Shown in pieces: positions 4,450 to 22,136 of a DNA stretch of 32,000 bases. The stretch is from NCBI RefSeq assembly GCF_000008625.1, contig NC_000918.1:1140001-1172000 (forward strand). Reading direction: 5' to 3'. The DNA is from Aquifex aeolicus VF5 (GTDB taxonomy: Bacteria; Aquificota; Aquificia; Aquificales; Aquificaceae). The first letter of the stretch is position 1. Each line of letters begins with the position of its first letter. The translations under genes were made by a program, and so were the position numbers. The notes beneath the pieces were generated by a model that saw only the letters and a list, made by a program, of their open reading frames with translations, did no database searches and was not told the origin of the DNA.

Positions 4450-5574
4450 TCAGGAAACGCCGGAGAGTGAGGATTTGTATTCTGCGACGAGCTCGGTATA
4501 ATCGTCAAACCAGTGAGCTTCTGGATTTCTCTTGAATACCATGAATTTACCCCTGTTTTCAGGGTCCGCAGCCCTGTGATACCTGAAGAATATATGCTCA
4601 TCGGTCTTTCCGAGGATTTCTATCTTTCCAGTTTCGTGGGACATGACGTACCTTACCCTTGCAGCAAGTCCTGACACCTCTGCCCTTACAGCTTCAACCA
4701 AGTCTATTGTTTCCTCTATCGGAGTTGAATAAGCTTTATTACCCGCGGTAGGTCTGCACTGGAACACGTAGTAAGGGGGTACTCCTATGAAGGAGAGTTC
4801 TTCAAGGAGCGTCTTTAGAGTTTCAAAGTCGTCGTTAATTCCCTTGAGTATAGGAGTCTGATTAGTAAGGGTGGTTCCCGTCTTTTGAACGAGTTCTACA
4901 GCCTTTCTTGCCTCTTTAGTTAACTCCCTTGGGTGGTTGAAGTGGTTCATGAGGTAAAGCTTTTTACCAGTTTCCGTGTTGAACCATTCAAAGAGTTCAA
5001 GGAGTTTGGGGTCGTCGAGAACTCTGAAGGGATTTACCGCGAGCATCTTAGAACCTATTCTTACTATCCTTACGTGGGGTATTTCAGCAAGAGCCTTTAA
5101 TATCTTCTCAAGTTTAAAGGTGGCAAGGATTAGCGGGTCTCCTCCGGTAAGGAGGACGTTGTTTATCTCAGGATGGTTCCTTATGTATTCAAGTCCTTCG
5201 GATACATCCCTTGCAACCTCGTCATTGTCGTTCATAAAGAGCCTCTTTCTGAAACAGAACCTGCAGTATATACCGCAAACGTCTGTCACGAGGAGCAGAG
5301 CCGTGTCGGGGTACTTGTGCTCAAGCCCGTGTACTTTCATGTACTTGCTCTCGTTTGAAGCGTCAAGCTTTCCCCACACTTCAAGCTCTTCCGTAGTGGG
5401 GATTACGATCCTCCTTATCGGGTCGTTCGGGTTGTCCCAGTTTATGAGGGAGTTGTAATAGGTGTTCGTCCTGAAGGCAAACTTTTCCGTAACCTTTTCA
5501 AGTTCCCTCCTCTCCTCCTCCGGAATTTCCTCTATGAATTTGAGGTCAATAATGTATTTAAGCTTCTTTCCCAT
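4450..5574 (-). CDS. kamA: KamA-family radical SAM aminomutase (lysine 2,3-aminomutase-like)
   Basis: CGIYCRFCFRK is a CxxxCxxC radical-SAM motif in KamA context. LTGGDPL and family-like flanks are present. Strong AAGGAGGTGA Shine-Dalgarno about 5 nt upstream of the ATG at 5574. Confidence 0.85.
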   Translation of the reverse strand: MGKKLKYIIDLKFIEEIPEEERRELEKVTEKFAFRTNTYYNSLINWDNPNDPIRRIVIPTTEELEVWGKLDASNESKYMKVHGLEHKYPDTALLLVTDVCGIYCRFCFRKRLFMNDNDEVARDVSEGLEYIRNHPEINNVLLTGGDPLILATFKLEKILKALAEIPHVRIVRIGSKMLAVNPFRVLDDPKLLELFEWFNTETGKKLYLMNHFNHPRELTKEARKAVELVQKTGTTLTNQTPILKGINDDFETLKTLLEELSFIGVPPYYVFQCRPTAGNKAYSTPIEETIDLVEAVRAEVSGLAARVRYVMSHETGKIEILGKTDEHIFFRYHRAADPENRGKFMVFKRNPEAHWFDDYTELVAEYKSSLSGVS

Positions 5575-7761: not shown

Positions 7762-7837
7762 TGGCTGGGGCGCCAGGACTCGAACCTGGAACCCCCGGAT
7801 CCAAAGTCCGGTGCTCTGCCAGTTGAGCTACGCCCCA
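7762..7837 (-). tRNA. tRNA-Gln (anticodon UUG), CCA encoded
   Basis: The reverse complement folds by hand into a 76-nt cloverleaf: UGGGGCG UA GCUC AACUGGCA GAGC A CCGGA CUUUGGA UCCGG GGGUU CCAGG UUCGAGU CCUGG CGCCCCA G CCA. The U1:A72 pair and G73 are typical of bacterial tRNA-Gln. Confidence 0.9.
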
Positions 7838-7854: not shown

Positions 7855-7882
7855 ATTATATACAATCCTCTCCTGTGTTCAA
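7855..7882 (-). promoter_or_regulatory. putative tRNA-Gln/prs promoter (TTGAAC, 16-nt spacer, TATAAT)
   Basis: On the minus strand, TTGAAC is at 7882-7877 and TATAAT at 7860-7855, 17 nt upstream of the mature tRNA 5' end. The -35 overlaps the stop codon of the upstream ligase-fusion gene. Confidence 0.4.
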
Positions 7883-10059
7883 GCCATCTCGTAGAACATT
7901 TCCAGCTTCTTTGAGTTTACCCCCGCAAGGGAAACGTCCGCATCGGGGTGTCCGTAGAGGGTGCAGAGAGTGACTATTTTTGTATCCGTGTACTTCTTGA
8001 GCATCCTTATGGTGAAGTCCGTTCTGTAGCAGTGTACTCCTATCATGAGGGTAAGGTCGTGCTCGCCGTACAACACGGAAAGGTGAGGATTGGGTGGGTC
8101 CACTTCTCTTGAGAAGTCCACTTTCTTGTTTTTCGGCTTGTAATCGGGTAGTAGGTGGATATTCAGGTTTGGATACTTTTCCTTCAGTCTCTTTATTATC
8201 TCACCTTTCTTTTTAGCCTCTTCGTTCCATGCCCAGAGCACCAGAGGTCCGACGATTAGAGTAGGTCTTTTTGCTTTGCTTAGAAGCTCTACGGCCACTT
8301 GAAGTGCCTCTTCAAAGGATACCTTTTGACCGTTTATGAAGCCTATTTCCGTGGAAGTTTCCCTGACTATGGGAAGCCTGCTCATGTCTTCCTGAGGACC
8401 CGGGGCGACCTTCGGAACTTTGTAGTTTTGTGGGATAAATTCTTTTAGGTTTTCGTTGGGAACAGGTTTTTGGGCACTTTGTCTCTTCTGAACTCTGGAA
8501 GTCTTTTCCTTGAGTGAAAGGAGTTTTTCACTGTCCTCCACGTAAAGGTCAAGTTCCACCTGAAACTCACCGTGGTAAGCTTTTTCCTCCTCTTCAACTC
8601 CGAGGGAGTAGCACGTAACTCCTTCTATATCTAAAAAAACTCCGTTCGCTCCCCACTCCTTCGCCTTTTTGAATATCTCGTACCTCTTTTCGTAGAACTC
8701 GTAACAGCAGTGTCCTATGTAGGTGTAGCCGTTTTCCCCGCACCACTGGAGGACGTCCCTCAGCATCTCAAAGCTCGTAATGGTTATGGGTATCATTCCC
8801 CTCTCGTAAGCCATTCTGTAAAGGTCTCCTACCGTACACCCTCCGCACTCTCCGCAGTCGTCCGTATGCCTGTAATCGCACCACGTGGGCTTTGCACAGT
8901 AGGGAAGGAGCATAACCTTAGCCTTTTTTATGTTCTCCTTCAGCCCTCCTCCTATACTGCCTATTACCCTATTGAGTTTTTTTTTATCAATTCCTAAATC
9001 CTGAGCCTCCAACTTCCTCAAGGGAAACATTACGGCTTCCACAAAATCGTCCACCGTGAGGTTCACGCTTTCAAATTCTCTTTCCTTGAAGAACTCCCTT
9101 ATCCTCTTTTCAACTTCCTGAACGGGAGTATGCTTGAGATAAGCTTCCAAGTCGTATATAAGTCTTTTGGGATTTATGAAGAAATCCCCGTTAATTATCA
9201 CCTGTTGAAGAACCTTAGTTTGGGGGTCCACTTTTGCGGAAACCCTGAAAGTTCCTCCAGGACACCTGTATATACCGTAGAGTATCTCGTCTCCCGTAAT
9301 AGCCTTCTTCACGTGGTAAATCCATTCATCACTCTTGAAGTAGTCTTTCTTTTCTTCAAAGAGTTCCAGCTCTTCCTTTGTTAGTTCTCCCCAGTAAGGT
9401 TCTATACCGAGTTCTTCCTTCAGGGCTTCAAGAATTGCGTTAAATACTTCTTCTTTTTCAGGCAGTCTTCCGATTTCCCTCTTTACCCACGTTATCCTGT
9501 CTTCCGCGGACTTTATCCCCTTGGAAGTTAGCTTCTCAACAGGTATCTGTAAGGATTTAAGCATTCTTTCCAAGTTCACGTCCATGAGGATAGTTCCCTG
9601 GTAGAGGAATGCGTTCCCCTCAAACACTCCACCCGTTCCCGAAATCTTCTTTCCCTCAACTTCTATGTCGTTCCTCGGTCTGAACTGGGCATTTACACCG
9701 AGTTTTCTGAGTGCTTTTGCCACGGTTTCGCATATGGTTCTCGTTATCTTCTCGTAGGATTTATTTCCAAAGCTTTCCCTGTCCGCTATTATTTCCCACC
9801 CTATCTGGAGCTCGTCAAAGTATATAGCTCCTCCTCCCGTAATCCTTCTGTTTACCTCTATTCCTTCTCTCTGAACGTACTCAAGTCTTACCTCTTGTTC
9901 AACAGCTTGGTGATAACCTATCAGGACGCATTCTGGTTTGAACTGTAAAAATCTTATAGTGTTTGGTATTTTCCCTTCGGACTTTAATTCTAAAAGAACG
10001 CTATCAAGTGCCATGTTTTCGTGGGCAGGTCTCTGCCCGGTGTATATTACTCTCCACAT
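7879..10059 (-). CDS. three-part fusion protein: lipoate-protein ligase (LplA N- and C-domains) + DUF116-like Cys-rich domain + unassigned about 165-aa C-terminal domain (726 aa)
   Basis: LplA motifs RRITGGGAIYFD and GKKISGTGG, and the C-terminal-domain signature GGTFRVSAKV...INGDFF (aa 1 to about 340). DUF116-like pattern LLPYCAKPTWCDYRHTDDCGECGGCTVG...GHCCYEFY (about aa 380-500). A Lys/Gln/Pro-rich linker precedes the final domain. The start was moved to the ATG at 10059 (MWRVIYTG, GGAG Shine-Dalgarno 7 nt upstream). The track's extension to 10245 overlaps the divergent gene. Confidence 0.8.
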   Translation of the reverse strand: MWRVIYTGQRPAHENMALDSVLLELKSEGKIPNTIRFLQFKPECVLIGYHQAVEQEVRLEYVQREGIEVNRRITGGGAIYFDELQIGWEIIADRESFGNKSYEKITRTICETVAKALRKLGVNAQFRPRNDIEVEGKKISGTGGVFEGNAFLYQGTILMDVNLERMLKSLQIPVEKLTSKGIKSAEDRITWVKREIGRLPEKEEVFNAILEALKEELGIEPYWGELTKEELELFEEKKDYFKSDEWIYHVKKAITGDEILYGIYRCPGGTFRVSAKVDPQTKVLQQVIINGDFFINPKRLIYDLEAYLKHTPVQEVEKRIREFFKEREFESVNLTVDDFVEAVMFPLRKLEAQDLGIDKKKLNRVIGSIGGGLKENIKKAKVMLLPYCAKPTWCDYRHTDDCGECGGCTVGDLYRMAYERGMIPITITSFEMLRDVLQWCGENGYTYIGHCCYEFYEKRYEIFKKAKEWGANGVFLDIEGVTCYSLGVEEEEKAYHGEFQVELDLYVEDSEKLLSLKEKTSRVQKRQSAQKPVPNENLKEFIPQNYKVPKVAPGPQEDMSRLPIVRETSTEIGFINGQKVSFEEALQVAVELLSKAKRPTLIVGPLVLWAWNEEAKKKGEIIKRLKEKYPNLNIHLLPDYKPKNKKVDFSREVDPPNPHLSVLYGEHDLTLMIGVHCYRTDFTIRMLKKYTDTKIVTLCTLYGHPDADVSLAGVNSKKLEMFYEMA

Positions 10060-10162
10060 ACTTTCACTCCTTAAGAAGTTTTCTTTAAAATCTCTATGAG
10101 ATATACACTCCTTTCTATAAGAAATTTTTATCATAGAATAAGCTATACCTAACCCTAAAATC

Positions 10163-11350
10163 ATGAGTATGGAAAAATTCGAGTTTCCCATAGACCTTGC
10201 CGAGAAATGCGTAAAGTGCGGACTCTGTAAATCGGTGTGCCCCACTTACCCCTTCAAAGAGGAAGAAGGAGCCTTTGCAAGGGGAAGACTCGCCCTTGCG
10301 GAAATGGTTGTAAAAGGCGAACTCCCTTTAACCAAGGAAGTCGTAGCCCAGTGGAATGAGTGTGCAATGTGTAGAAGGTGTGAGTGGATATGTCCAAACG
10401 ACGTTCAGTACAAGGAGATAATGGTTCACGCAAGAGAAATCCAAAGGAAGGAAACGGAAAGGGATTTCATATCGGAGGCCGGATTAAAAAGTCTGGAATT
10501 TATGCAGTCAAAACCAGGAAGAGTTGCGTTAAAAATTGCGGGAATACTTTCTAAACCTCTTCCCAAAGAGATAAAAGTTCCTCTCCCCACGGGAGGAGTT
10601 AAGTTCTTTCCCAAACCCTATGGAAAGCCTTTCGGTATAAGGGGAAAGACTTTTAGAGCCAAGAATGAGAAGATGAAGCTCCTCTTCTTTACGGGATGTA
10701 TGATAGACGTCTTTTACGGAAAGACGGGAGAGAACGTAATAAAGGTTTTGAATAAACTCGGTTATACGGTAATTGTTCCAAAGGACATAAAGTGCTGTGG
10801 TGCACCCCACCTTTACCACGGAAACACGGAGGCTTTTGAGAAGTTAAAGGAACACAACTTAAAGGAAATTGAGAAGTACGAGTACGACGCTCTTGTTGTT
10901 GCGTGCCCAACCTGCGGAGGAGCTCTGAAGGAAGACTACGGAAAGGACTGGAAGGTTTTCAGCTTTACTGAGATAATAGCGAATGAAGACATTGAGTTTA
11001 AAGGAAAAGGTGAGAAAGTTACCGTTCACGTTCCCTGCCACTACTACACTGCCATGAAGTTAAATCCGAACAACTTCTACAAAGCCCTCGGAAAGGTAAA
11101 AAACGCGGAGACGGTTAAAGCGGAAAAGGCTCAGAGTTGTTGCGGATTTGCAGGACTCTTCTCAATAAAGAACCCTGAGCTCTCGGAAGAAATCCAAAGG
11201 GAAAAGATGCTTGACTTTAAAAAGACTGAGGCGGACTACGTAGTTACGGAGTGCCCGGGATGCGTTCTACAACTGAGAGACGGCGTGAAGAAGTTCAAAA
11301 ACCAACAGGAAGTAAAGCACATAGCTGATTACCTGGGTGAGAGGATTTAG
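10163..11350 (+). CDS. Fe-S oxidoreductase of the HdrD/GlcF/GlpC type (two 4Fe-4S ferredoxin motifs + two CCG domains)
   Basis: CVKCGLCKSVCP and CAMCRRCEWICP ferredoxin motifs are followed by two Cys-rich CCG repeats (TGCM...CCGAP...CPTCG and VPCH...CCGFAG...CPGC). Confidence 0.85.
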   Translation: MSMEKFEFPIDLAEKCVKCGLCKSVCPTYPFKEEEGAFARGRLALAEMVVKGELPLTKEVVAQWNECAMCRRCEWICPNDVQYKEIMVHAREIQRKETERDFISEAGLKSLEFMQSKPGRVALKIAGILSKPLPKEIKVPLPTGGVKFFPKPYGKPFGIRGKTFRAKNEKMKLLFFTGCMIDVFYGKTGENVIKVLNKLGYTVIVPKDIKCCGAPHLYHGNTEAFEKLKEHNLKEIEKYEYDALVVACPTCGGALKEDYGKDWKVFSFTEIIANEDIEFKGKGEKVTVHVPCHYYTAMKLNPNNFYKALGKVKNAETVKAEKAQSCCGFAGLFSIKNPELSEEIQREKMLDFKKTEADYVVTECPGCVLQLRDGVKKFKNQQEVKHIADYLGERI

Positions 11351-11364
11351 TAGACTTTTATCAT

Positions 11365-11501
11365 ATGAAGATACTCTTCTACGCACCGAACTTTACACGC
11401 CCTCTGAAAAATGGTACAGCTTCTACAATTTTAGCATCAATGTGGGCTAACTATTTACACCGCAAGGGGAACGAAATTCTCCTTGTTAGTCAATACCCGG
11501 T
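11365..11501 (+). pseudogene. 5' fragment (about 45 codons) of a GT4 glycosyltransferase gene interrupted by an IS element
   Basis: MKILFYAPNFTRPLKNGTASTILASMWANYLHRKGNEILLVSQYPV is a typical GT-B N-terminal beta-alpha unit. The frame continues across the IS once the element and one target-duplication copy are removed. Confidence 0.65.
11493..11501. repeat. left copy of the 9-bp target-site duplication ATACCCGGT
   Basis: An identical 9-mer occurs at 12512-12520, directly flanking the inverted repeats. Confidence 0.75.
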
Positions 11502-12511
11502 GAGCCTGTTGAAAAAATCGTCATGACTTAGAGAATAAAGCGAGAGGAAGCCCATGTAATCCTCAAAAGGTTAAGACACAATAAAAGGAGCTTCAGAAGA
11601 AGGATCAAGTTGTAAAGAACAAACCTCCCTAGAACATACAAACTCGCAATCTCAAAGTCATAAACATTGTCCCTGTCCCCAAACCTGTTCTTAACTATCC
11701 CTATCACCTGCTCAACCCTGTACCTGTTCTTTCTATAAACCTTCCTCCTTATCTCATAATTCCTCTTAGCCCATAGCCTATACATGTTCCTAACTCTTGT
11801 ATGTGCAGTATCCCTCACCGGAACTATAGACTCCATCCGTAGCTTCTTTATTTCCTCTAAAACTCCTGCAGACTTCCCATAGTAGGCATCCCCAAGAAAA
11901 TACCTCGCTCTAAAGCCAAGTTCTTTGAGCATGGATCTTAGCAGCATATTCTCATCTGCATAGGATTTGCCTGTGTTTATATCCACTACTATAGCTTTGT
12001 TTCTTACAACTCCTACAAGAACTTCTGTTTTCACATGAGATTTTACATTCCTAAGTTCCTTTCCCTTCTTCCACTTGAGTTCATATGCCTGTGCATATCC
12101 AAATCCGGTTCCGTCAGCAATAAGGCAGTAAAACTCTTTTGCCTGAAGCTTTTCCATTATCTCCTTTGCGGTCCTGTGTATTAGCTCTTTGAGATAGCCC
12201 CGGTTTAGTTTTCTGAACCTGTAGTGGAGAGTGGTAAAGTCAGGTACTTTGGGGAATAGGTCTTTTAGTCTTTCTTCTAAATCTCGGAGGGAGAGGTTTT
12301 CTAAGATCTTAATCAGTAGTGCTGCTACTATGAGGTGATCTTCGTAAACTCTGGGTCTTCCTCTTTTGTTGTACTGACTTGGTCTAATGGTATTGCATAT
12401 TTCCCTGCTTTTGGTTAATATCAGTTTTATCAATTGCTTGTTATTTCTTGTTCTCATTCCCTTCCTTCTACTTCTTCTCTTCCACTGTGTCAAGATTTTT
12501 TAAACGGGCTT
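11502..12511 (-). mobile_element. IS element, 1010 bp, IS5 family (IS903-like architecture)
   Basis: 18-bp terminal inverted repeats: GAGCCTGTTGAAAAAATC at 11502-11519 versus the reverse complement of 12494-12511, AAGCCCGTTTAAAAAATC (15/18 match). It has a 9-bp direct duplication and a single DDE transposase ORF filling the element. From memory, the IR resembles the IS903 end GGCTTTGTTGAATAAATC. Confidence 0.82.
11528..12493 (-). CDS. DDE transposase (IS4/IS5 superfamily)
   Basis: Candidate catalytic residues lie in IADGTGFG, FLGDAYYG and YRVEQVIGIVKNRFG (the Y..R...E......K-type signature). The track start at 12493 is TTG. An ATG at 12457 (MRTRNNKQ) is an alternative start. Confidence 0.85.
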   Translation of the reverse strand: MTQWKRRSRRKGMRTRNNKQLIKLILTKSREICNTIRPSQYNKRGRPRVYEDHLIVAALLIKILENLSLRDLEERLKDLFPKVPDFTTLHYRFRKLNRGYLKELIHRTAKEIMEKLQAKEFYCLIADGTGFGYAQAYELKWKKGKELRNVKSHVKTEVLVGVVRNKAIVVDINTGKSYADENMLLRSMLKELGFRARYFLGDAYYGKSAGVLEEIKKLRMESIVPVRDTAHTRVRNMYRLWAKRNYEIRRKVYRKNRYRVEQVIGIVKNRFGDRDNVYDFEIASLYVLGRFVLYNLILLLKLLLLCLNLLRITWASSRFIL

Positions 12512-12520
12512 ATACCCGGT
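12512..12520. repeat. right copy of the 9-bp target-site duplication ATACCCGGT
   Basis: Identical to 11493-11501. Confidence 0.75.
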
Positions 12521-12536
12521 AGTTGAAGAAGAAGGA

Positions 12537-13487
12537 TTGATTCACTTTCCTCATATTTCCTTGAAAAGAAATAAATTGAACGGGGACATATTTTATGCAA
12601 AACGTTTAAGTGAAGTTATAAAATCAGAAAAGCCAGATATAGTTTATGCTTTCTTCAGATCTATGAGTACAATTCTTGGTTTATCAACGTTTTTTGGTAA
12701 AGAAACAGGCACTATTTATCTTGGAAGTGTTCATAATACTGATAATTACATTAAATACGGTTCCCTTAAACATATACCTTACAGAGTGATGATTAAGGTT
12801 TTACTGGAAAAACTTGATGGAATTGTATGCGTATCAAACACAGTAAAAAGAGACTTAAAACAAACTTTTTGGATTAAGGACGATAAACTTAAGGTTGTCT
12901 ATAATTTAATTGACATAGATAAAATAAGAAAACAGGCAGACGAGTCAATTAATGTGGACTTTGATTATATAATAGCAGTAGGAAGGTTAGAAGATCAAAA
13001 AGGTTATCCTTATATGCTCAGAGCCTTTAAATTGATTTCCGAAAAATTTAAAGATTTACACTTACTAATAATAGGAGAAGGATCAAAGAAGAATCAAGTT
13101 GAAAAATTGATTGAAGAGTTAGGTTTGAAAAATAAAGTGCACTTACTCGGTTATCAATTAAACCCCTACAAGTACATAAAGAGAGCAAAAGCTTACCTAA
13201 TGACCTCTATTTATGAAGGGTTTGGATTAGTTTTAGTGGAAGCTATGGCGTTAGGTATTCCTGTAATTGCTTTTGATATACCTGCTGTTAGAGAAGTGTT
13301 AAATGATGGTAAAGCAGGAGTTTTAGTACCTTTTGGAGATATAAATGCATTTGCAAAAGGATTGGAAAAATTACTTACAGATAGGAACTTAAGGGAGTAT
13401 TACATAAAGAACGGACTTATTAGGGCAAAGGATTTTGATATAAGTAAACTTGATAAGATTTTTTCAAAAGATTTCTGGGAAAAATAA
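12537..13487 (+). CDS. GT4-family (GT-B fold) glycosyltransferase, 3' portion of the IS-interrupted gene
   Basis: GRLEDQKGY, LLIIGEG and EGFGLVLVEAMALGIPVIA (the E-x7-E motif). The reading frame is open upstream to the target duplication at 12513 (YPVVEEEGLIHF). The track start is a TTG. Visibly more AT-rich than neighbouring genes. Confidence 0.8.
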   Translation: MIHFPHISLKRNKLNGDIFYAKRLSEVIKSEKPDIVYAFFRSMSTILGLSTFFGKETGTIYLGSVHNTDNYIKYGSLKHIPYRVMIKVLLEKLDGIVCVSNTVKRDLKQTFWIKDDKLKVVYNLIDIDKIRKQADESINVDFDYIIAVGRLEDQKGYPYMLRAFKLISEKFKDLHLLIIGEGSKKNQVEKLIEELGLKNKVHLLGYQLNPYKYIKRAKAYLMTSIYEGFGLVLVEAMALGIPVIAFDIPAVREVLNDGKAGVLVPFGDINAFAKGLEKLLTDRNLREYYIKNGLIRAKDFDISKLDKIFSKDFWEK

Positions 13488-13497
13488 CTTTTTCTTT

Positions 13498-13844
13498 TGG
13501 TGGAGGCGGCGGGAATCGAACCCGCGTCCGAGGACGGCGGCCACATCCGAGGCTCTACAGGCTTAGCCCGTGTTCAGGATTTCCCCTCGGGTCGCCCACG
13601 GGCAAGCTCCCCGAGGGTAGCACGGGTTAGGTGTCAGCTACTCAGCCCCGTGCGACCGAGTAGCCCGAGCGGGTGTCTCTGACGCCCTCCGGTAGGCCAC
13701 CCGCAAACCTACCGGGGACGCGCTGCCGTTTAATTAGGCAGCGAGAGCGAGTTCAGCTTCGGGAGCTGTTTTAGCGGCTGTTACGGGAGCCACCCGGCCT
13801 GCTCCTCGGGGACCGCCTGTCCCCGTCGAATCCTTTCCGCCCCC
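13498..13844 (-). ncRNA. ssrA: tmRNA (SsrA), 347 nt, tag reading frame APEAELALAA-stop
   Basis: The 5' end is GGGGGCGGAAAGGATTCGACGGGG and the 3' end is GCGGGTTCGATTCCCGCCGCCTCCACCA. The acceptor stem pairs with a G3:U alanine identity element and a T-arm is present. The tag ORF GCT CCC GAA GCT GAA CTC GCT CTC GCT GCC TAA lies at 13766-13734. Confidence 0.94.
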
Positions 13845-19421: not shown

Positions 19422-20355
19422 CCTACTTCCCTTTTCGTACTTATACGAAAAAATTATTAACTTCAGAAACACACTTTACGATAAGGGATTTTTAAAGATA
19501 AAAAAACTTCCCGTTCCCGTGATTTCTGTAGGAAACCTCTCGGTGGGCGGAAGTGGAAAGACCTCCTTCGTTATGTACCTTGCCGACTTGTTGAAGGATA
19601 AAAGGGTTTGTATACTGTCCCGGGGCTACAAGAGAAAGAGTAAAGGTACCCTAATCGTTTCGGAGTACGGGAATTTAAAGGTTTCCTGGGAAGAGGCAGG
19701 GGACGAGCCCTACCTTATGGCCAAGTTGCTACCACATGTGAGCGTCGTGGCATCGGAGGACAGGTATAAGGGAGGACTCTTAGCTCTGGAAAAGTTATCT
19801 CCCGAGGTTTTTATTCTTGACGACGGATTTCAACACAGGAAACTCCACAGGGACCTTAATATCTTACTTTTAAAGAAAAAGGATTTGAAGGACAGGCTTC
19901 TCCCCGCCGGAAATCTGAGGGAACCTCTAAAGGAAATAAGGAGGGCAGACGCTTTAGTTCTTACCTACCAGGAAGTTGAGCCTTTTGAGTTCTTTACGGG
20001 AAAACCCACTTTCAAGATGTTCAGGGAGTTTTGCTGTTTGCTGAACTCAGACTTTGAAGAAGTGCCTTTTGATATTCTAAAGGAGAGAGAGGTTATAGCT
20101 TTCAGCGGACTCGGGGACAACGGACAATTCAGGAAAGTTTTGAAAAATTTAGGGATAAAGGTAAAAGAATTTATGTCCTTCCCCGATCACTACGATTACT
20201 CGGATTTCACACCAGAGGAGGGAGAAATTTACTTAACCACTCCAAAGGATCTAATAAAACTGCAGGGTTATGAGAACGTTTTTGCCCTGAACTTCAAAGT
20301 TAAGTTGGAAAGGGAAGAAAAGCTGAAAAAGCTCATTTATAGAATTTTTTACTGA
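19408..20355 (+). CDS. lpxK: tetraacyldisaccharide 4'-kinase (lipid A biosynthesis)
   Basis: P-loop VISVGNLSVGGSGKTS in LpxK context, plus ILSRGY and LDDGFQH. Confidence 0.87.
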   Translation: MLRSSLLPFSYLYEKIINFRNTLYDKGFLKIKKLPVPVISVGNLSVGGSGKTSFVMYLADLLKDKRVCILSRGYKRKSKGTLIVSEYGNLKVSWEEAGDEPYLMAKLLPHVSVVASEDRYKGGLLALEKLSPEVFILDDGFQHRKLHRDLNILLLKKKDLKDRLLPAGNLREPLKEIRRADALVLTYQEVEPFEFFTGKPTFKMFREFCCLLNSDFEEVPFDILKEREVIAFSGLGDNGQFRKVLKNLGIKVKEFMSFPDHYDYSDFTPEEGEIYLTTPKDLIKLQGYENVFALNFKVKLEREEKLKKLIYRIFY

Positions 20356-20824
20356 TTTGGGCTCTCTCTTCACCGCAGTTCACGTCTTCCCTTTCAATGT
20401 ATTCTTTTAGTTTTTGAACAGCTTCTTCTCCAGTAACGAGGTCCTGAAGATCCCTTTCCAAGTTTGCAGGCTTTAATTTTGCTATCCACCCTTCGCCGTA
20501 AGGATCTTCGTTTATGAGGTCAGGCTTGTCAAAGAGTTTTTCGTTCCTCTCAACAACTTCCCCTTCTATGTCCGCGGGAACGGGTCCAGCCCACTTTCCG
20601 CTTTCAAGGCTTGCCACGGGTTTTCCCTTCTTTACGTACTTTCCGGGTGGTTTAATACGTATGTTTATTATCTTTCCCGCCCTTGCCTGTCCGATGTCTG
20701 TAACTCCAACGGTTACGGTGCCGTCTTCGTTTACCTTAAACCAGACCTGATTTTCTATATCGTAGTAAAGGTCCTTCGGAATAACACAACCCCTGTATTC
20801 TTCAACCTTTTCCGCCATACTCAA
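20333..20824 (-). CDS. glycine-cleavage H-protein-like lipoyl carrier, atypical (163 aa)
   Basis: H-protein fold signatures VGVTDIGQ and EDPYGEGW are present. The lipoyl-lysine region reads SLESGKWAGPVP instead of the canonical ESVKA. An extra C-terminal segment of about 35 aa is present. Confidence 0.78.
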   Translation of the reverse strand: MSMAEKVEEYRGCVIPKDLYYDIENQVWFKVNEDGTVTVGVTDIGQARAGKIINIRIKPPGKYVKKGKPVASLESGKWAGPVPADIEGEVVERNEKLFDKPDLINEDPYGEGWIAKLKPANLERDLQDLVTGEEAVQKLKEYIEREDVNCGEERAQISKKFYK

Positions 20825-21365
20825 CCCCCAAAAGAATTTTACAAGAATTTTCCAAAACCGAAGTAATCTCGTAAGCCCTTATTAAGTTCTCCGCCCCTGC
20901 AAAAACACCGTGACCTTTAATTACCGCAATACTTTTTTCTTTTAATTCTTCCGCCAGGTTCTGCGCCAGCTCTTCACTCGCAGACGAATTTTCAAGTTCA
21001 AGAACGTTTACCTTTCCCAGAATAGCCTTACCTTCACTATCTAAGGGAGTTATCTCTTTGGTTTTGAGTGAGCACATAACGGCGTAAACAGGATGGGTGT
21101 GGAGAAGTGCTTTATGTTCTGTTTCTCTTAAAACTCTTCTATGAACTATAAGTTCCGAGGAAGCTCTCTCTTCTAGAATGCTTTCCCCTTCAAGGGGCAG
21201 TTCCAGTATGTCTCCTTCACTCAGGTTTCTGAAGTTCGCACCCGTTCTCGTTATGTAGAGTTTCCCGCTAAAAATTCTACTCATGTTTCCCGTGTAGGAA
21301 TAAGTCAGGTTTTCCTGAGATACGAGCTCAGCGCACTTTAAGAACTCTTTGAGTATAAACTCCAC
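20802..21365 (-). CDS. class II aldolase/adducin-domain protein (FucA/MtnB-like)
   Basis: GNMS, the LLHTHPVYA His pair and KGHGVF are typical of the zinc-dependent class II aldolase fold. GTG start. Overlaps the H-protein-like gene by 23 nt. Confidence 0.72.
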   Translation of the reverse strand: MEFILKEFLKCAELVSQENLTYSYTGNMSRIFSGKLYITRTGANFRNLSEGDILELPLEGESILEERASSELIVHRRVLRETEHKALLHTHPVYAVMCSLKTKEITPLDSEGKAILGKVNVLELENSSASEELAQNLAEELKEKSIAVIKGHGVFAGAENLIRAYEITSVLENSCKILLGVEYGGKG

Positions 21366-21413: not shown

Positions 21414-22136
21414 TTATAACTCAATTAGAACTACTTTTTGGGTGAGGCACTCAATTATCTCACTTAACTCTTTCCTGCTTACGAAGTAAACCCTTCCGCC
21501 CAAAGGATCTCCCTTTTCCTTCAAGGGAGTTATCCTGACGTATCCTATTTCCTTTCCCGAAACGTATCCCGTGACGTAATCGGGATCATCACTCCAGCAA
21601 AGCTCCGCCACAACACCGCAAAACAAGTTCTTAAAGGTCAGAGCCAGAGCGTCAACAGTTCTTAGGGTGTAGCCTTCCTTCAGGAGTTTTTCAGTTACTT
21701 TTTTCCTGTCCTTCCAGTCAAAGTGAATGGTTCTTACTCCCCTTTCCTTGTCCTCTTCAAGCCTCTCCCCTGTTTCTATATCCATAAGAACCGCACCTCT
21801 CATATTTCCGCCTTTGGGGTTTGCTCCCTTTGACAGGATTTCCACAGCCTTTTTTGCCACTTCCTCTTTTATACCTTCCTGGGTGAGTTTTTTTACTGCA
21901 AACTCCCTCGCTTCCTCCGGACTTTTGAAACTGTATGTGGATATTTTCAGGTTAAACTTCACAACTTCAAAATCCTTTACCTTTTCAACTTTTACGTTCA
22001 TAAAGTCAAATTCCTTCGGTCTGTTAAGGAGTTCTTTGACTGCGGTTTCCAGTTCCTCTTTTTTTACTATCCTTTCCGCTCCCGAGACGTGCTTTCCGTT
22101 TTTCTGTGCCCGCATTCTTACACTGAAAAGATCCAT
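21414..22136 (-). CDS. bioW: 6-carboxyhexanoate-CoA ligase (pimeloyl-CoA synthetase)
   Basis: MDLFSVRMRAQKNGKHVSGAERIV and an overall length of 240 aa match BioW as I recall it for Aquifex. Confidence 0.82.
   Translation of the reverse strand: MDLFSVRMRAQKNGKHVSGAERIVKKEELETAVKELLNRPKEFDFMNVKVEKVKDFEVVKFNLKISTYSFKSPEEAREFAVKKLTQEGIKEEVAKKAVEILSKGANPKGGNMRGAVLMDIETGERLEEDKERGVRTIHFDWKDRKKVTEKLLKEGYTLRTVDALALTFKNLFCGVVAELCWSDDPDYVTGYVSGKEIGYVRITPLKEKGDPLGGRVYFVSRKELSEIIECLTQKVVLIEL

Follow-up and report, generated by a model that had tools for sequence, protein, structure and literature searches.

A lipoate:protein ligase of Aquifex aeolicus joined to a DUF116 domain and a CdhB-like domain: a probable variant of the ligase of the LipS1/LipS2 lipoate-assembly pathway

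Among described systems, one close counterpart of the gene treated here is sLpl(AB), which acts as the ligase when lipoate is assembled by the sLpl(AB)-LipS1/LipS2(-LipT) route (Cao et al. 2018, PMC6067878; PMC10332631). We analyzed a stretch of 32,000 nucleotides of Aquifex aeolicus VF5 (contig NC_000918.1, positions 1,140,001 to 1,172,000 of the forward strand), hereafter referred to as the window, in which a minus-strand gene encodes a lipoate:protein ligase joined to a DUF116 domain and a CdhB-like domain. Like sLpl(AB), this protein has a catalytic and, probably, an accessory domain, and its two-domain relatives, which consist of the ligase and DUF116, occur in lipS1/lipS2/lipT clusters with lbpA/gcvH, tusA and dsrE. 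Unlike the described sLpl(AB), it carries DUF116 and, in Aquificaceae, the CdhB-like domain, and the Aquificaceae gene is not linked to the pathway genes. The bipartite LplA/LplB of Thermoplasma acidophilum (2ars, 3r07) is similar in fold to the window ligase (target-normalized template modeling (TM) score, ~0.85); in the window protein, however, the LplA and LplB-like parts are fused and ~380 further residues are present. The LplA-LipA fusion (NF053790) likewise joins a ligase to machinery that completes the lipoyl group, whereas the add-on of the window protein is DUF116 plus PF02552 and not a radical S-adenosylmethionine (SAM) lipoyl synthase.

The other parts of the locus also have described relatives. 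The CdhB-like domain shares PF02552 with the delta subunits of the Aquificaceae five-subunit pyruvate and 2-oxoglutarate:ferredoxin oxidoreductases (PFOR and OGOR; aq_1192, aq_1166) and with CdhB, the epsilon subunit of the archaeal acetyl-CoA decarbonylase/synthase (ACDS), these subunits being accessory parts of Fe-S redox enzymes; in the window, the domain forms the C-terminal part of a ligase and is not a subunit of a 2-oxoacid:ferredoxin oxidoreductase (OFOR) or of a carbon monoxide dehydrogenase (CODH). Stand-alone DUF116/COG1852/arCOG02078 proteins (PMC5898192) and the window domain have in common the conserved Cys residues including CxxCxxC, a predicted flavodoxin-like fold and predicted metal binding. 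The canonical arCOG02078 protein has two N-terminal transmembrane helices and sulfite-reductase-like or ArsA-like neighbors (PMC5898192), whereas the window DUF116 is preceded by a soluble ligase (according to Pfam and the AlphaFold2 (AF2) model) and its context is lipoate assembly. The divergent neighbor of the ligase gene has the Fer4 plus two-CCG architecture of the HdrD/GlcF/GlpC/LdhH proteins and matches their models in part. As for the phylum, 30 Aquificota genomes with both LipS1 and LipS2 are listed in the S4 table of Tanabe et al. 2023 (PMC10332631), with Lpl in 29 and LipT in 28; the sulfur-oxidizing heterodisulfide reductase-like (sHdr) system is given there for 31 and LbpA for 35 Aquificota genomes. 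A. aeolicus is annotated with LipA and LplA (PMC3917532).

We consider the window protein to be, probably, the form that the lipoate/octanoate:protein ligase of the LipS1/LipS2(/LipT) pathway takes in Aquificaceae, equipped with an add-on module that is probably of an Fe-S, redox or sulfur-relay kind. Its parts are as follows.

7879..10059, minus strand: complete ligase-fusion gene of 726 codons and a stop; a single polypeptide comprising the Lpl(AB) ligase, DUF116, the linker and the CdhB-like domain.
9310..10059, minus strand: LplA catalytic domain, aa 1-250; PF21948 E 1.3e-50; RRITGGGAIYFD at aa 71-82; presumed catalytic Lys138 in GKKISGTGG.
9025..9297, minus strand: probable LplB-like accessory (C-terminal) domain, aa 255-345; Lip_prot_lig_C E 5.7e-4, below the cut-off.
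8506..9006, minus strand: DUF116 domain, aa 352-518 (core aa 378-505); PF01976 26.2-28.4 bits, eight conserved Cys residues, predicted flavodoxin-like alpha/beta fold.
8392..8505, minus strand: Lys/Gln/Pro-rich linker, aa 519-556; predicted local distance difference test (pLDDT) score <50 at aa 522-529, low block means at 540-570; 44% mean identity in Aquificaceae.
7882..8391, minus strand: CdhB-like (PF02552) domain, aa 557-726; PF02552 E 9.6e-64.

The uninterrupted open reading frame (ORF) on the minus strand spans 7879..10245. Within it, the ATG at 10059 is the likely start, because an AAGGAG Shine-Dalgarno sequence (ctcctt on the plus strand, 10068-10073) is located 8-13 nt upstream and the orthologues share the MWRV... 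N-terminus. A preliminary description of this DNA, made from the letters alone, had reported one uninterrupted 726-codon ORF in three parts, and this was confirmed by the ORF, its translation and the Pfam domain matches. All of the motifs quoted there were located: besides RRITGGGAIYFD, they are GKKISGTGG at aa 136-144, LLPYC388-x5-C394-x7-C402-x2-C405-x2-C408 and GHC451C452. A sequencing artefact was ruled out, since the identical architecture is kept in >30 Aquificaceae genomes and contigs. The gene is split or truncated in a few loci of metagenome-assembled genomes (MAGs; L031, L035, L045) and in a few proteins (P0069, P0126), and these copies look like assembly frameshifts or fragments. 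The AF2 model of the full-length protein has a mean pLDDT of 86.4 and a predicted TM score (pTM) of 0.74, and the low confidence is confined to the linker (aa 522-529) and one loop. One relative (P0055, 1117 aa) has two tandem LplA-type ligase modules, followed by DUF116 and the CdhB-like domain.

The ligase part is the most readily assigned. LplA-B_cat (PF21948) matches aa 12-213, and a search of the sequences in the PDB with the ligase part retrieved lipoate-protein ligases only, the best being 1vqz (E 3e-30); among them are T. acidophilum LplA (2ars, 3r07_A; E ~1e-20) and the LplB subunit 3r07_C (E 0.0035). In the Foldseek comparison, the AF2 model matched LplA structures with E 3e-23 and a target-normalized TM of ~0.82, over ~355 columns spanning full-length LplA. 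The accessory domain is the less conspicuous one: Lip_prot_lig_C reaches 20.2 bits at aa 265-341 against a Pfam cut-off of 24, and the NCBIfam LplB model gives 49.7 bits against a cut-off of 65. The bifunctional LplA-LipA model NF053790 also matches the ligase part (E 6e-37), its score being 127 against a cut-off of 800. Apart from the Hydrogenobaculum type, which is described below, every sampled relative keeps the motifs RRxTGGG and G[KR]KISGTGG unchanged. We take Lys138 to be the catalytic residue by its equivalence to K133 of the E. coli enzyme. The catalytic competence that had been ascribed to this part thus appears intact in terms of profile matches, motifs and predicted fold, and the assignment of the window protein as an Lpl(AB)-type lipoate:protein ligase is, as far as sequence can tell, much more secure than its placement in a pathway.

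For the distribution of the fusion, taxa are given as labeled in the sequence records. The three-domain form was found in Aquifex, Hydrogenivirga, Thermocrinis, Hydrogenobacter, Hydrogenobaculum and many Aquificaceae MAGs, at 44-89% identity. The two-domain LplA-DUF116 form (~515-545 aa, 40-49% identity over the shared part) is spread over >12 bacterial and archaeal phyla, including Nitrospirota, Desulfobacterota, Chloroflexota, Actinomycetota, Bacillota, Sumerlaeota, Nitrospinota and Caldisericia, and also several Asgard lineages, Thermoplasmata, Thermoproteota and Methanobacteriota. Exactly one DUF116 ORF is present in each fetched locus. This, together with the wide distribution, indicates that the LplA-DUF116 fusion is real and old. 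In two loci, the fusion extends further, into LplA-DUF116-LipT single ORFs of ~900 aa: one is at 9986-12670 (plus strand) of L060, a Sumerlaeota MAG, and another is at 9956-12688 (plus strand) of L081, labeled bacterium BMS3Abin01. The LipT portion of both is a flavoprotein of the geranylgeranyl-reductase (GGR) family.

The neighbors of the two-domain gene within 6 kb were counted in the 29 loci that offer 4 kb or more of flanking sequence on each side.

LipT-like: 86% of loci, plus two loci with LipT fused into the ORF.
LipS2-like: 86% of loci.
LipS1: 76% of loci.
GcvH/LbpA: 72% of loci.
HdrD-like CCG protein: 55% of loci.
TusA: 28% of loci.
Second plain Lpl(AB): 21% of loci.
DsrE: 17% of loci.

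Linkage to lipS1, lipS2 and lipT was found in 76-93% of these loci, and in most of them the gap between the ligase stop and the LipT start is 0-50 bp. Two gene orders recur: tusA-dsrE-dsrE-gcvH/lbpA-lipS1-[lplA-DUF116]-...-lipT-lipS2 (L006, L008, L040) and lipS2-lipS1-[lplA-DUF116]-lipT (L007, L055, L062, L073, L075). When the identity of the neighbors was checked, one of the radical-SAM proteins scored above the NCBIfam LipS1 cut-off, LipS2 was the best match of the other, and the LipT-like protein scored above the NCBIfam cut-off of the GGR family. By these matches, the two-domain loci are those of the published sLpl(AB)-LipS1/LipS2-LipT lipoate-assembly pathway (PMC6067878, PMC10332631). 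The preliminary description had regarded the locus as an undescribed module, and this part of it cannot be kept, because the two-domain relatives lie in this published pathway, which is linked to LbpA and sHdr. Its suggestion that the fusion ties DUF116 to protein lipoylation was, on the other hand, strengthened by fusions in many phyla within lipS1/lipS2/lipT/gcvH clusters, two of them being fused to LipT. DUF116 is not named in PMC10332631 according to a term search, and the literature searched contained no paper combining DUF116 with a lipoate-protein ligase.

The partnership also holds without fusion, as seen from a Burkholderiales MAG (L109), in which Lpl(AB) and DUF116 are separate genes that overlap by 4 nt. 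In this contig (3052-10453), the split Lpl(AB) gene and the separate DUF116 gene are located between two peptidase-U32 genes and an SCP2 gene, which we take to be UbiU/UbiV-like and UbiT-like, respectively. Genes for NrdD, the NrdD activase and a CRP/FNR-type regulator are found in the vicinity; the region resembles an anaerobic gene island, and no LipS or LipT gene was seen there. Two further stand-alone DUF116 contexts (L110, L111) were uninformative: their contigs are rich in fragmented genes, and the split is thus probably artificial, leaving L109 as the only convincing one.

The middle segment of the window protein had been described as DUF116-like. This was borne out by profile searches, in which all 15 of the sampled DUF116 segments matched PF01976 (best E 4.5e-13); the model is covered almost entirely in L060, L081 and L109. 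Cys388, 394, 402, 405, 408, 452 and 483 occur in 57 of the 57 sequences compared, and Cys451 in 56 of them, the CxxCxxC motif being included in this set. The domain-only AF2 model (pLDDT 92.2, pTM 0.88) is of a flavodoxin-like alpha/beta type. DUF116 is thus predicted to be a metal-binding, probably Fe-S, module with this fold. The Cys set and the model agree with an HHpred-based prediction for COG1852, according to which it is a flavodoxin-like, metal-binding, electron-transfer protein (PMC5898192; Makarova et al. 2015). When the PDB sequences were searched with the DUF116 profile, no significant match was obtained. The possibility that DUF116 is a disguised CCG (HdrB-type) domain was rejected at the level that can be tested: hhalign gave a probability of 3.4% against the window CCG protein, the best 50 Foldseek matches to the DUF116 model include no HdrB, and none is significant in the PDB.

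DUF116 is also the best conserved part of the protein. Within Aquificaceae, DUF116 has a mean identity of 87%, whereas the ligase averages 59%, the CdhB-like domain 58% and the linker 44%. A clear contrast is seen in the Hydrogenobaculum-type proteins (P0060, P0061, P0063, P0065, P0068; loci L004, L005, L032, L034): RRxTGGG is replaced by K-S-L-S-G-Q-A and Lys138 by Arg, and the identity is 28-35% for the ligase domains, 86% for DUF116 and 55.5% for the CdhB-like domain. From its sequence, this type has the appearance of a pseudo-ligase in which the C-terminal module is conserved. Since DUF116 and the CdhB-like domain were kept while the ligase motifs decayed, the C-terminal module is selected for a function of its own.

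The third domain had been described as unknown, with a faint resemblance to FwdB or to the middle domain of thiamine pyrophosphate (TPP) enzymes. It is in fact a strong member of PF02552 (CO_dh; CdhB, acetyl-CoA synthase epsilon subunit), nearest to OFOR delta subunits: the match at aa 558-725 has 214.6 bits and covers profile positions 2-167 of 168. The resemblance mentioned above amounts to weak matches (TPP_enzyme_M, E 0.085; FwdB 9sw6_J, E 0.14). The cdhB equivalog TIGR00315 was not reached (29.3 bits against a cut-off of 101.2), and the solved CdhB structure 1ytl matched weakly, with E 4.8e-4. Relatives were obtained by an exhaustive search of 1.84 billion representatives, in which 53 clusters reached E<=0.001; when the domain alone was used in a word-indexed search, only five fragments came up. 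Outside the Aquificaceae fusions, the clusters are stand-alone PF02552 proteins of 200-260 aa with ~30-35% identity. One of these (P0130, ~31% identity) is encoded by the first gene of an OFOR operon beside genes of the reductive tricarboxylic acid cycle, and another protein (P0147, 387 aa) unites an OFOR gamma (POR) domain, CO_dh and a partial POR_N. By sequence, the third domain is accordingly a paralogue of the delta subunit of the five-subunit OGOR/PFOR and not a true ACDS epsilon subunit. A. aeolicus is reported to have no acetyl-CoA synthase (ACS) genes (PMC10052474), and no CdhA/ACS partner gene was found in the window. None of the fetched two-domain loci encodes a CdhB-like protein, so that, among the proteins sampled, the domain is found solely in those of Aquificaceae. 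The function of the OFOR delta subunits (Por-delta, For-delta) is described as intriguing and unknown (PMC10052474). A fusion of a different kind was seen in P0138 (543 aa), in which a periplasmic-binding-protein-like domain is joined to CO_dh.

In the mechanism that we propose, the ligase part (aa 1-345) would activate octanoate or lipoate with ATP and transfer it to a Lys residue of a GcvH-type carrier, probably the LbpA of the sHdr sulfur-oxidation system. DUF116, as an eight-Cys module that accompanies the ligase and binds metal, most likely as Fe-S, would most likely relay electrons between LipT (a GGR-type flavoprotein) or ferredoxin and the radical-SAM proteins LipS1/LipS2 for sulfur insertion, with the ligase domain holding the carrier protein during the relay; less likely, it would supply or repair the sacrificial cluster of LipS1/LipS2. 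As a guess, the CdhB-like domain may act as an adaptor or stabilizer of the metal centre in DUF116; it might, for instance, couple this centre to low-potential ferredoxin or shield it from O2 in the microaerophilic Aquificaceae. The redox-adaptor reading is supported by the PF02552 relatives, since OFOR delta and ACDS epsilon are accessory subunits of ferredoxin-using Fe-S enzymes, and the LplA-LipA fusion model NF053790 provides a precedent for joining a ligase to sulfur-insertion machinery. The domain architecture and its conservation, the intact ligase motifs, the tight linkage or fusion of ligase-DUF116 with pathway and carrier genes in relatives, and the separate selection on the C-terminal module are observed; that metal is bound, in which direction and to what end electrons or sulfur are transferred, which carrier is the substrate and what the CdhB-like domain does are what we infer in this scheme. 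It can be carried further, tentatively and at rather long odds: DUF116 may be the missing dedicated component for redox or sulfur supply in LipS1/LipS2 lipoyl synthesis, as a new-fold Fe-S domain wired to LipT or ferredoxin and brought to the substrate by the ligase, and the PF02552 domains (CdhB, OFOR delta and the ligase-fused one) may be general adaptors between labile Fe-S centres and low-potential ferredoxin, in anaerobes as well as in microaerophiles.

Several observations weigh against our main reading, that of the window protein as a ligase of the LipS1/LipS2 pathway with a metal-binding add-on. One is the context of the Aquificaceae gene: lipS1, lipS2, lipT and lbpA were found near the three-domain gene in 0 of the 20 Aquificaceae loci with good flanks, so that the assignment of the Aquificaceae protein to the pathway comes from its homology to the two-domain form and from the phylum-level co-occurrence reported in the literature. 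Another is the second plain ligase in an Aquifex-like contig (L105) and in some two-domain clusters, which makes the division of work between the ligases ambiguous. The lipoate-protein ligase equivalog TIGR00545 was not reached (185.7 bits against an NCBIfam cut-off of 280), which makes the fusion ligase a member of a divergent subfamily. The DUF116 score of the window protein is barely above the Pfam gathering threshold of 25, and the match is limited to the Cys-rich part (aa 378-434). In the PDB, Foldseek found nothing at E<=0.001 for the DUF116 model, the best matches being generic flavodoxin-like folds at E ~0.1. The last is that Aquificota retain LipT (28 of the 30 LipS1/LipS2-containing genomes in the S4 table of PMC10332631); the CdhB-like domain is therefore no simple replacement of LipT, and this candidate role was rejected.

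No lipS1, lipS2 or lipT gene is present in the window. A radical-SAM gene at 4450-5574 (minus strand) was considered as LipS and rejected: it encodes a KamA-family, aminomutase-like protein, which passes the TIGR00238 subfamily cut-off without reaching a specific equivalog. A GcvH-family protein of 163 aa is encoded at 20333-20824 (minus strand; PF01597 E 1e-46), with a score above the NCBIfam PRK01202 subfamily cut-off and below the gcvH equivalog. Its gene lies at a distance of ~10 kb from that of the ligase, shows no linkage to it, and adjoins genes for a class II aldolase (20802-21365) and BioW (21414-22136); the protein is a possible substrate carrier of the ligase. In L105, the plain Lpl(AB) (345 aa; 10602-11639, minus strand) is encoded 2.4 kb beyond the CCG gene and has no counterpart in the window, where an insertion sequence (IS) element and a glycosyltransferase gene follow the CCG gene. 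The neighbors of this plain Lpl(AB) (Trbp111, ScpA and a pyridoxal phosphate (PLP) enzyme) gave no clue to the task split between the two ligases. Most simply, A. aeolicus would have two lipoylation routes, with the three-domain protein belonging to the LipS1/LipS2 one. The recurrent neighbor of the Aquificaceae three-domain gene is FeoAB alone (25% of the 20 loci). Genes for FeoA/FeoB ferrous-iron transport stand beside it, for instance, at 10172-13240 of L001 and at 5759-7899 of L003, and also in L021 and L026. This adjacency could be local synteny or could hint at an iron connection.

An alternative to the electron relay is that DUF116 carries an Fe-S cluster or sulfur with which the auxiliary clusters sacrificed by LipS1/LipS2 are rebuilt, in the manner of NfuA. 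Lipoyl synthases consume an auxiliary cluster as their sulfur source. A protein with eight conserved Cys residues would fit such a task, and the FeoAB genes beside a quarter of the Aquificaceae loci, together with the TusA and DsrE sulfur-transferase genes in some two-domain clusters, are consistent with it. The near-obligate LipT adjacency and the two LipT fusions, however, point to electron transfer, and the PF02552 partner domain, where it occurs elsewhere, goes with redox enzymes. To our knowledge, known cluster carriers have far fewer ligand Cys residues than eight, and the FeoAB adjacency, as stated above, may be local synteny. We therefore regard this alternative as unlikely.

The second alternative concerns the gene that is divergently transcribed from the ligase gene. 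The relevant features are as follows.

10060..10162, no strand: divergent intergenic region, 103 bp, with the ligase Shine-Dalgarno sequence at 10068-10073 and one promoter-like plus-strand match at 10063-10091.
10163..11350, plus strand: HdrD/GlcF-type Fe-S protein, 395 aa; Fer4_8 E 1.8e-11 and two CCG stretches E 7e-45 (Pfam).

The promoter-like match comes from a consensus scan and carries no evidence of function. A divergent neighbor at a distance of about 100 bp had been reported, and this agrees with the 103 bp between the starts and with the Fer4_8 and two CCG domains found by Pfam. Among the NCBIfam models, the protein matches LdhH, TfrB, GlcF and GlpC best, and all named equivalogs, including HdrB, stay below their cut-offs. 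No gene for a partner flavoprotein or membrane subunit adjoins the CCG gene in the window. A DDE transposase gene of an IS element (11528-12493, minus strand) is directly downstream, so that the former context of the CCG gene is broken. In the Aquifex-genus relatives, the position after the CCG gene is occupied by CysS (L010), a PLP-dependent enzyme (L105) or a hypothetical gene (L013).

According to this alternative, which the preliminary description had advanced, the ligase works as one half of a dedicated pair and loads a lipoyl or dithiol carrier, whose disulfide is reduced or oxidized by the other half, the HdrD-like CCG protein. The divergent pair is kept in six Aquifex-genus contigs (L010, L011, L013, L017, L092, L105; CCG identity 82-90%) despite different outer flanks, and in sHdr systems CCG-domain subunits occur together with LbpA (PMC6067878). 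More widely, HdrD-like proteins are indeed associated with GcvH-like carriers and with ligases of this type: proteins of the identical Fer4_8 plus two-CCG architecture are encoded within 6 kb in 55% of the two-domain loci, often flanking a GcvH-like gene. Such HdrD-like genes (370-435 aa) flank GcvH-like genes upstream of the ligase gene in L047, L049, L051, L055, L083, L085, L087 and L075, the last six having CCG-GcvH-CCG cassettes directly upstream. However, the window CCG protein is ~24% identical to these HdrD-like proteins and scores higher on the LdhH, TfrB and GlcF models. A CCG gene is located beside the ligase gene in 1 of the 20 Aquificaceae loci and is lacking there in Hydrogenivirga, Thermocrinis and Hydrogenobaculum. 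CCG orthologues of other Aquificaceae (64-70% identity) have varying neighbors, and genes for a ligase, LipS, LipT or GcvH are absent from the 7 kb around them; the retention of a 103-bp spacer within one genus can be plain synteny. Thus, of the proposed ligase-plus-reductase module, the pairing stands within the genus Aquifex alone, and HdrD proteins of like architecture near the two-domain genes speak for it more broadly; with the adjacency restricted in this way, the dedicated module is weakly supported, and we consider it improbable.

The HdrD-GcvH cassettes deserve mention in their own right. Their hosts are Desulfobacterota, Methanobacteriota MAGs and a MAG labeled Nitrosopumilales, and the table of Tanabe et al. 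gives sHdr in just 1 Desulfobacterota genome (PMC10332631). These cassettes may represent an uncharacterized lipoate-dependent Hdr-like system. A further possibility is that the HdrD-like-GcvH-HdrD-like cassettes in Desulfobacterota, Actinomycetota and archaea mark a lipoate-dependent Hdr-like redox system of which the Aquifex CCG neighbor is a remote relative.

The remaining alternative, that the LplA part serves mainly as a scaffold for binding the carrier protein or the acyl group (as a pseudo-ligase or a module for specificity) and brings GcvH/LbpA to DUF116 while a separate plain Lpl(AB) ligates, finds its footing in the motif loss of the Hydrogenobaculum type, which keeps DUF116 and the CdhB-like domain, and in the plain Lpl(AB) of 21% of the two-domain clusters and of L105, but is very unlikely for the window protein, since both signature motifs are invariant in it and in all other sampled relatives, which suggests retained catalysis, and most two-domain clusters have no second ligase.

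Other genes were noted near the ligase gene and its orthologues. A tRNA-Gln gene (7762-7837, minus strand) is immediately downstream of the ligase gene, and a transfer-messenger RNA gene (13498-13844, minus strand) encodes the tag AKTAPEAELALAA. In one Aquifex MAG, a SAVED-domain protein (a sensor domain of the type found in cyclic oligonucleotide-based antiphage signaling systems, CBASS) is encoded near the ligase gene (L013, 5229-6725, minus strand).

The lipoate-assembly pathway, the ligase class and the database domain matches are already known. In the literature searched, we found none of the following: the DUF116 add-on, the LipT fusions, the OFOR-delta-like third domain and the decay of the Hydrogenobaculum ligase. 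An orphan family of long standing, DUF116 (COG1852) occurs widely among archaea and bacteria, and a vague electron-transfer guess was all that existed for it; it gains here a first functional context, which is testable. The Hydrogenobaculum type, in which the ligase decayed and DUF116 was retained, is a natural experiment showing that the add-on module matters by itself. [quoted passage not shown] Finally, the fusion may identify a missing part of the LipS1/LipS2 route, namely, the electron supply or the renewal of the sacrificial clusters of its two radical-SAM enzymes.

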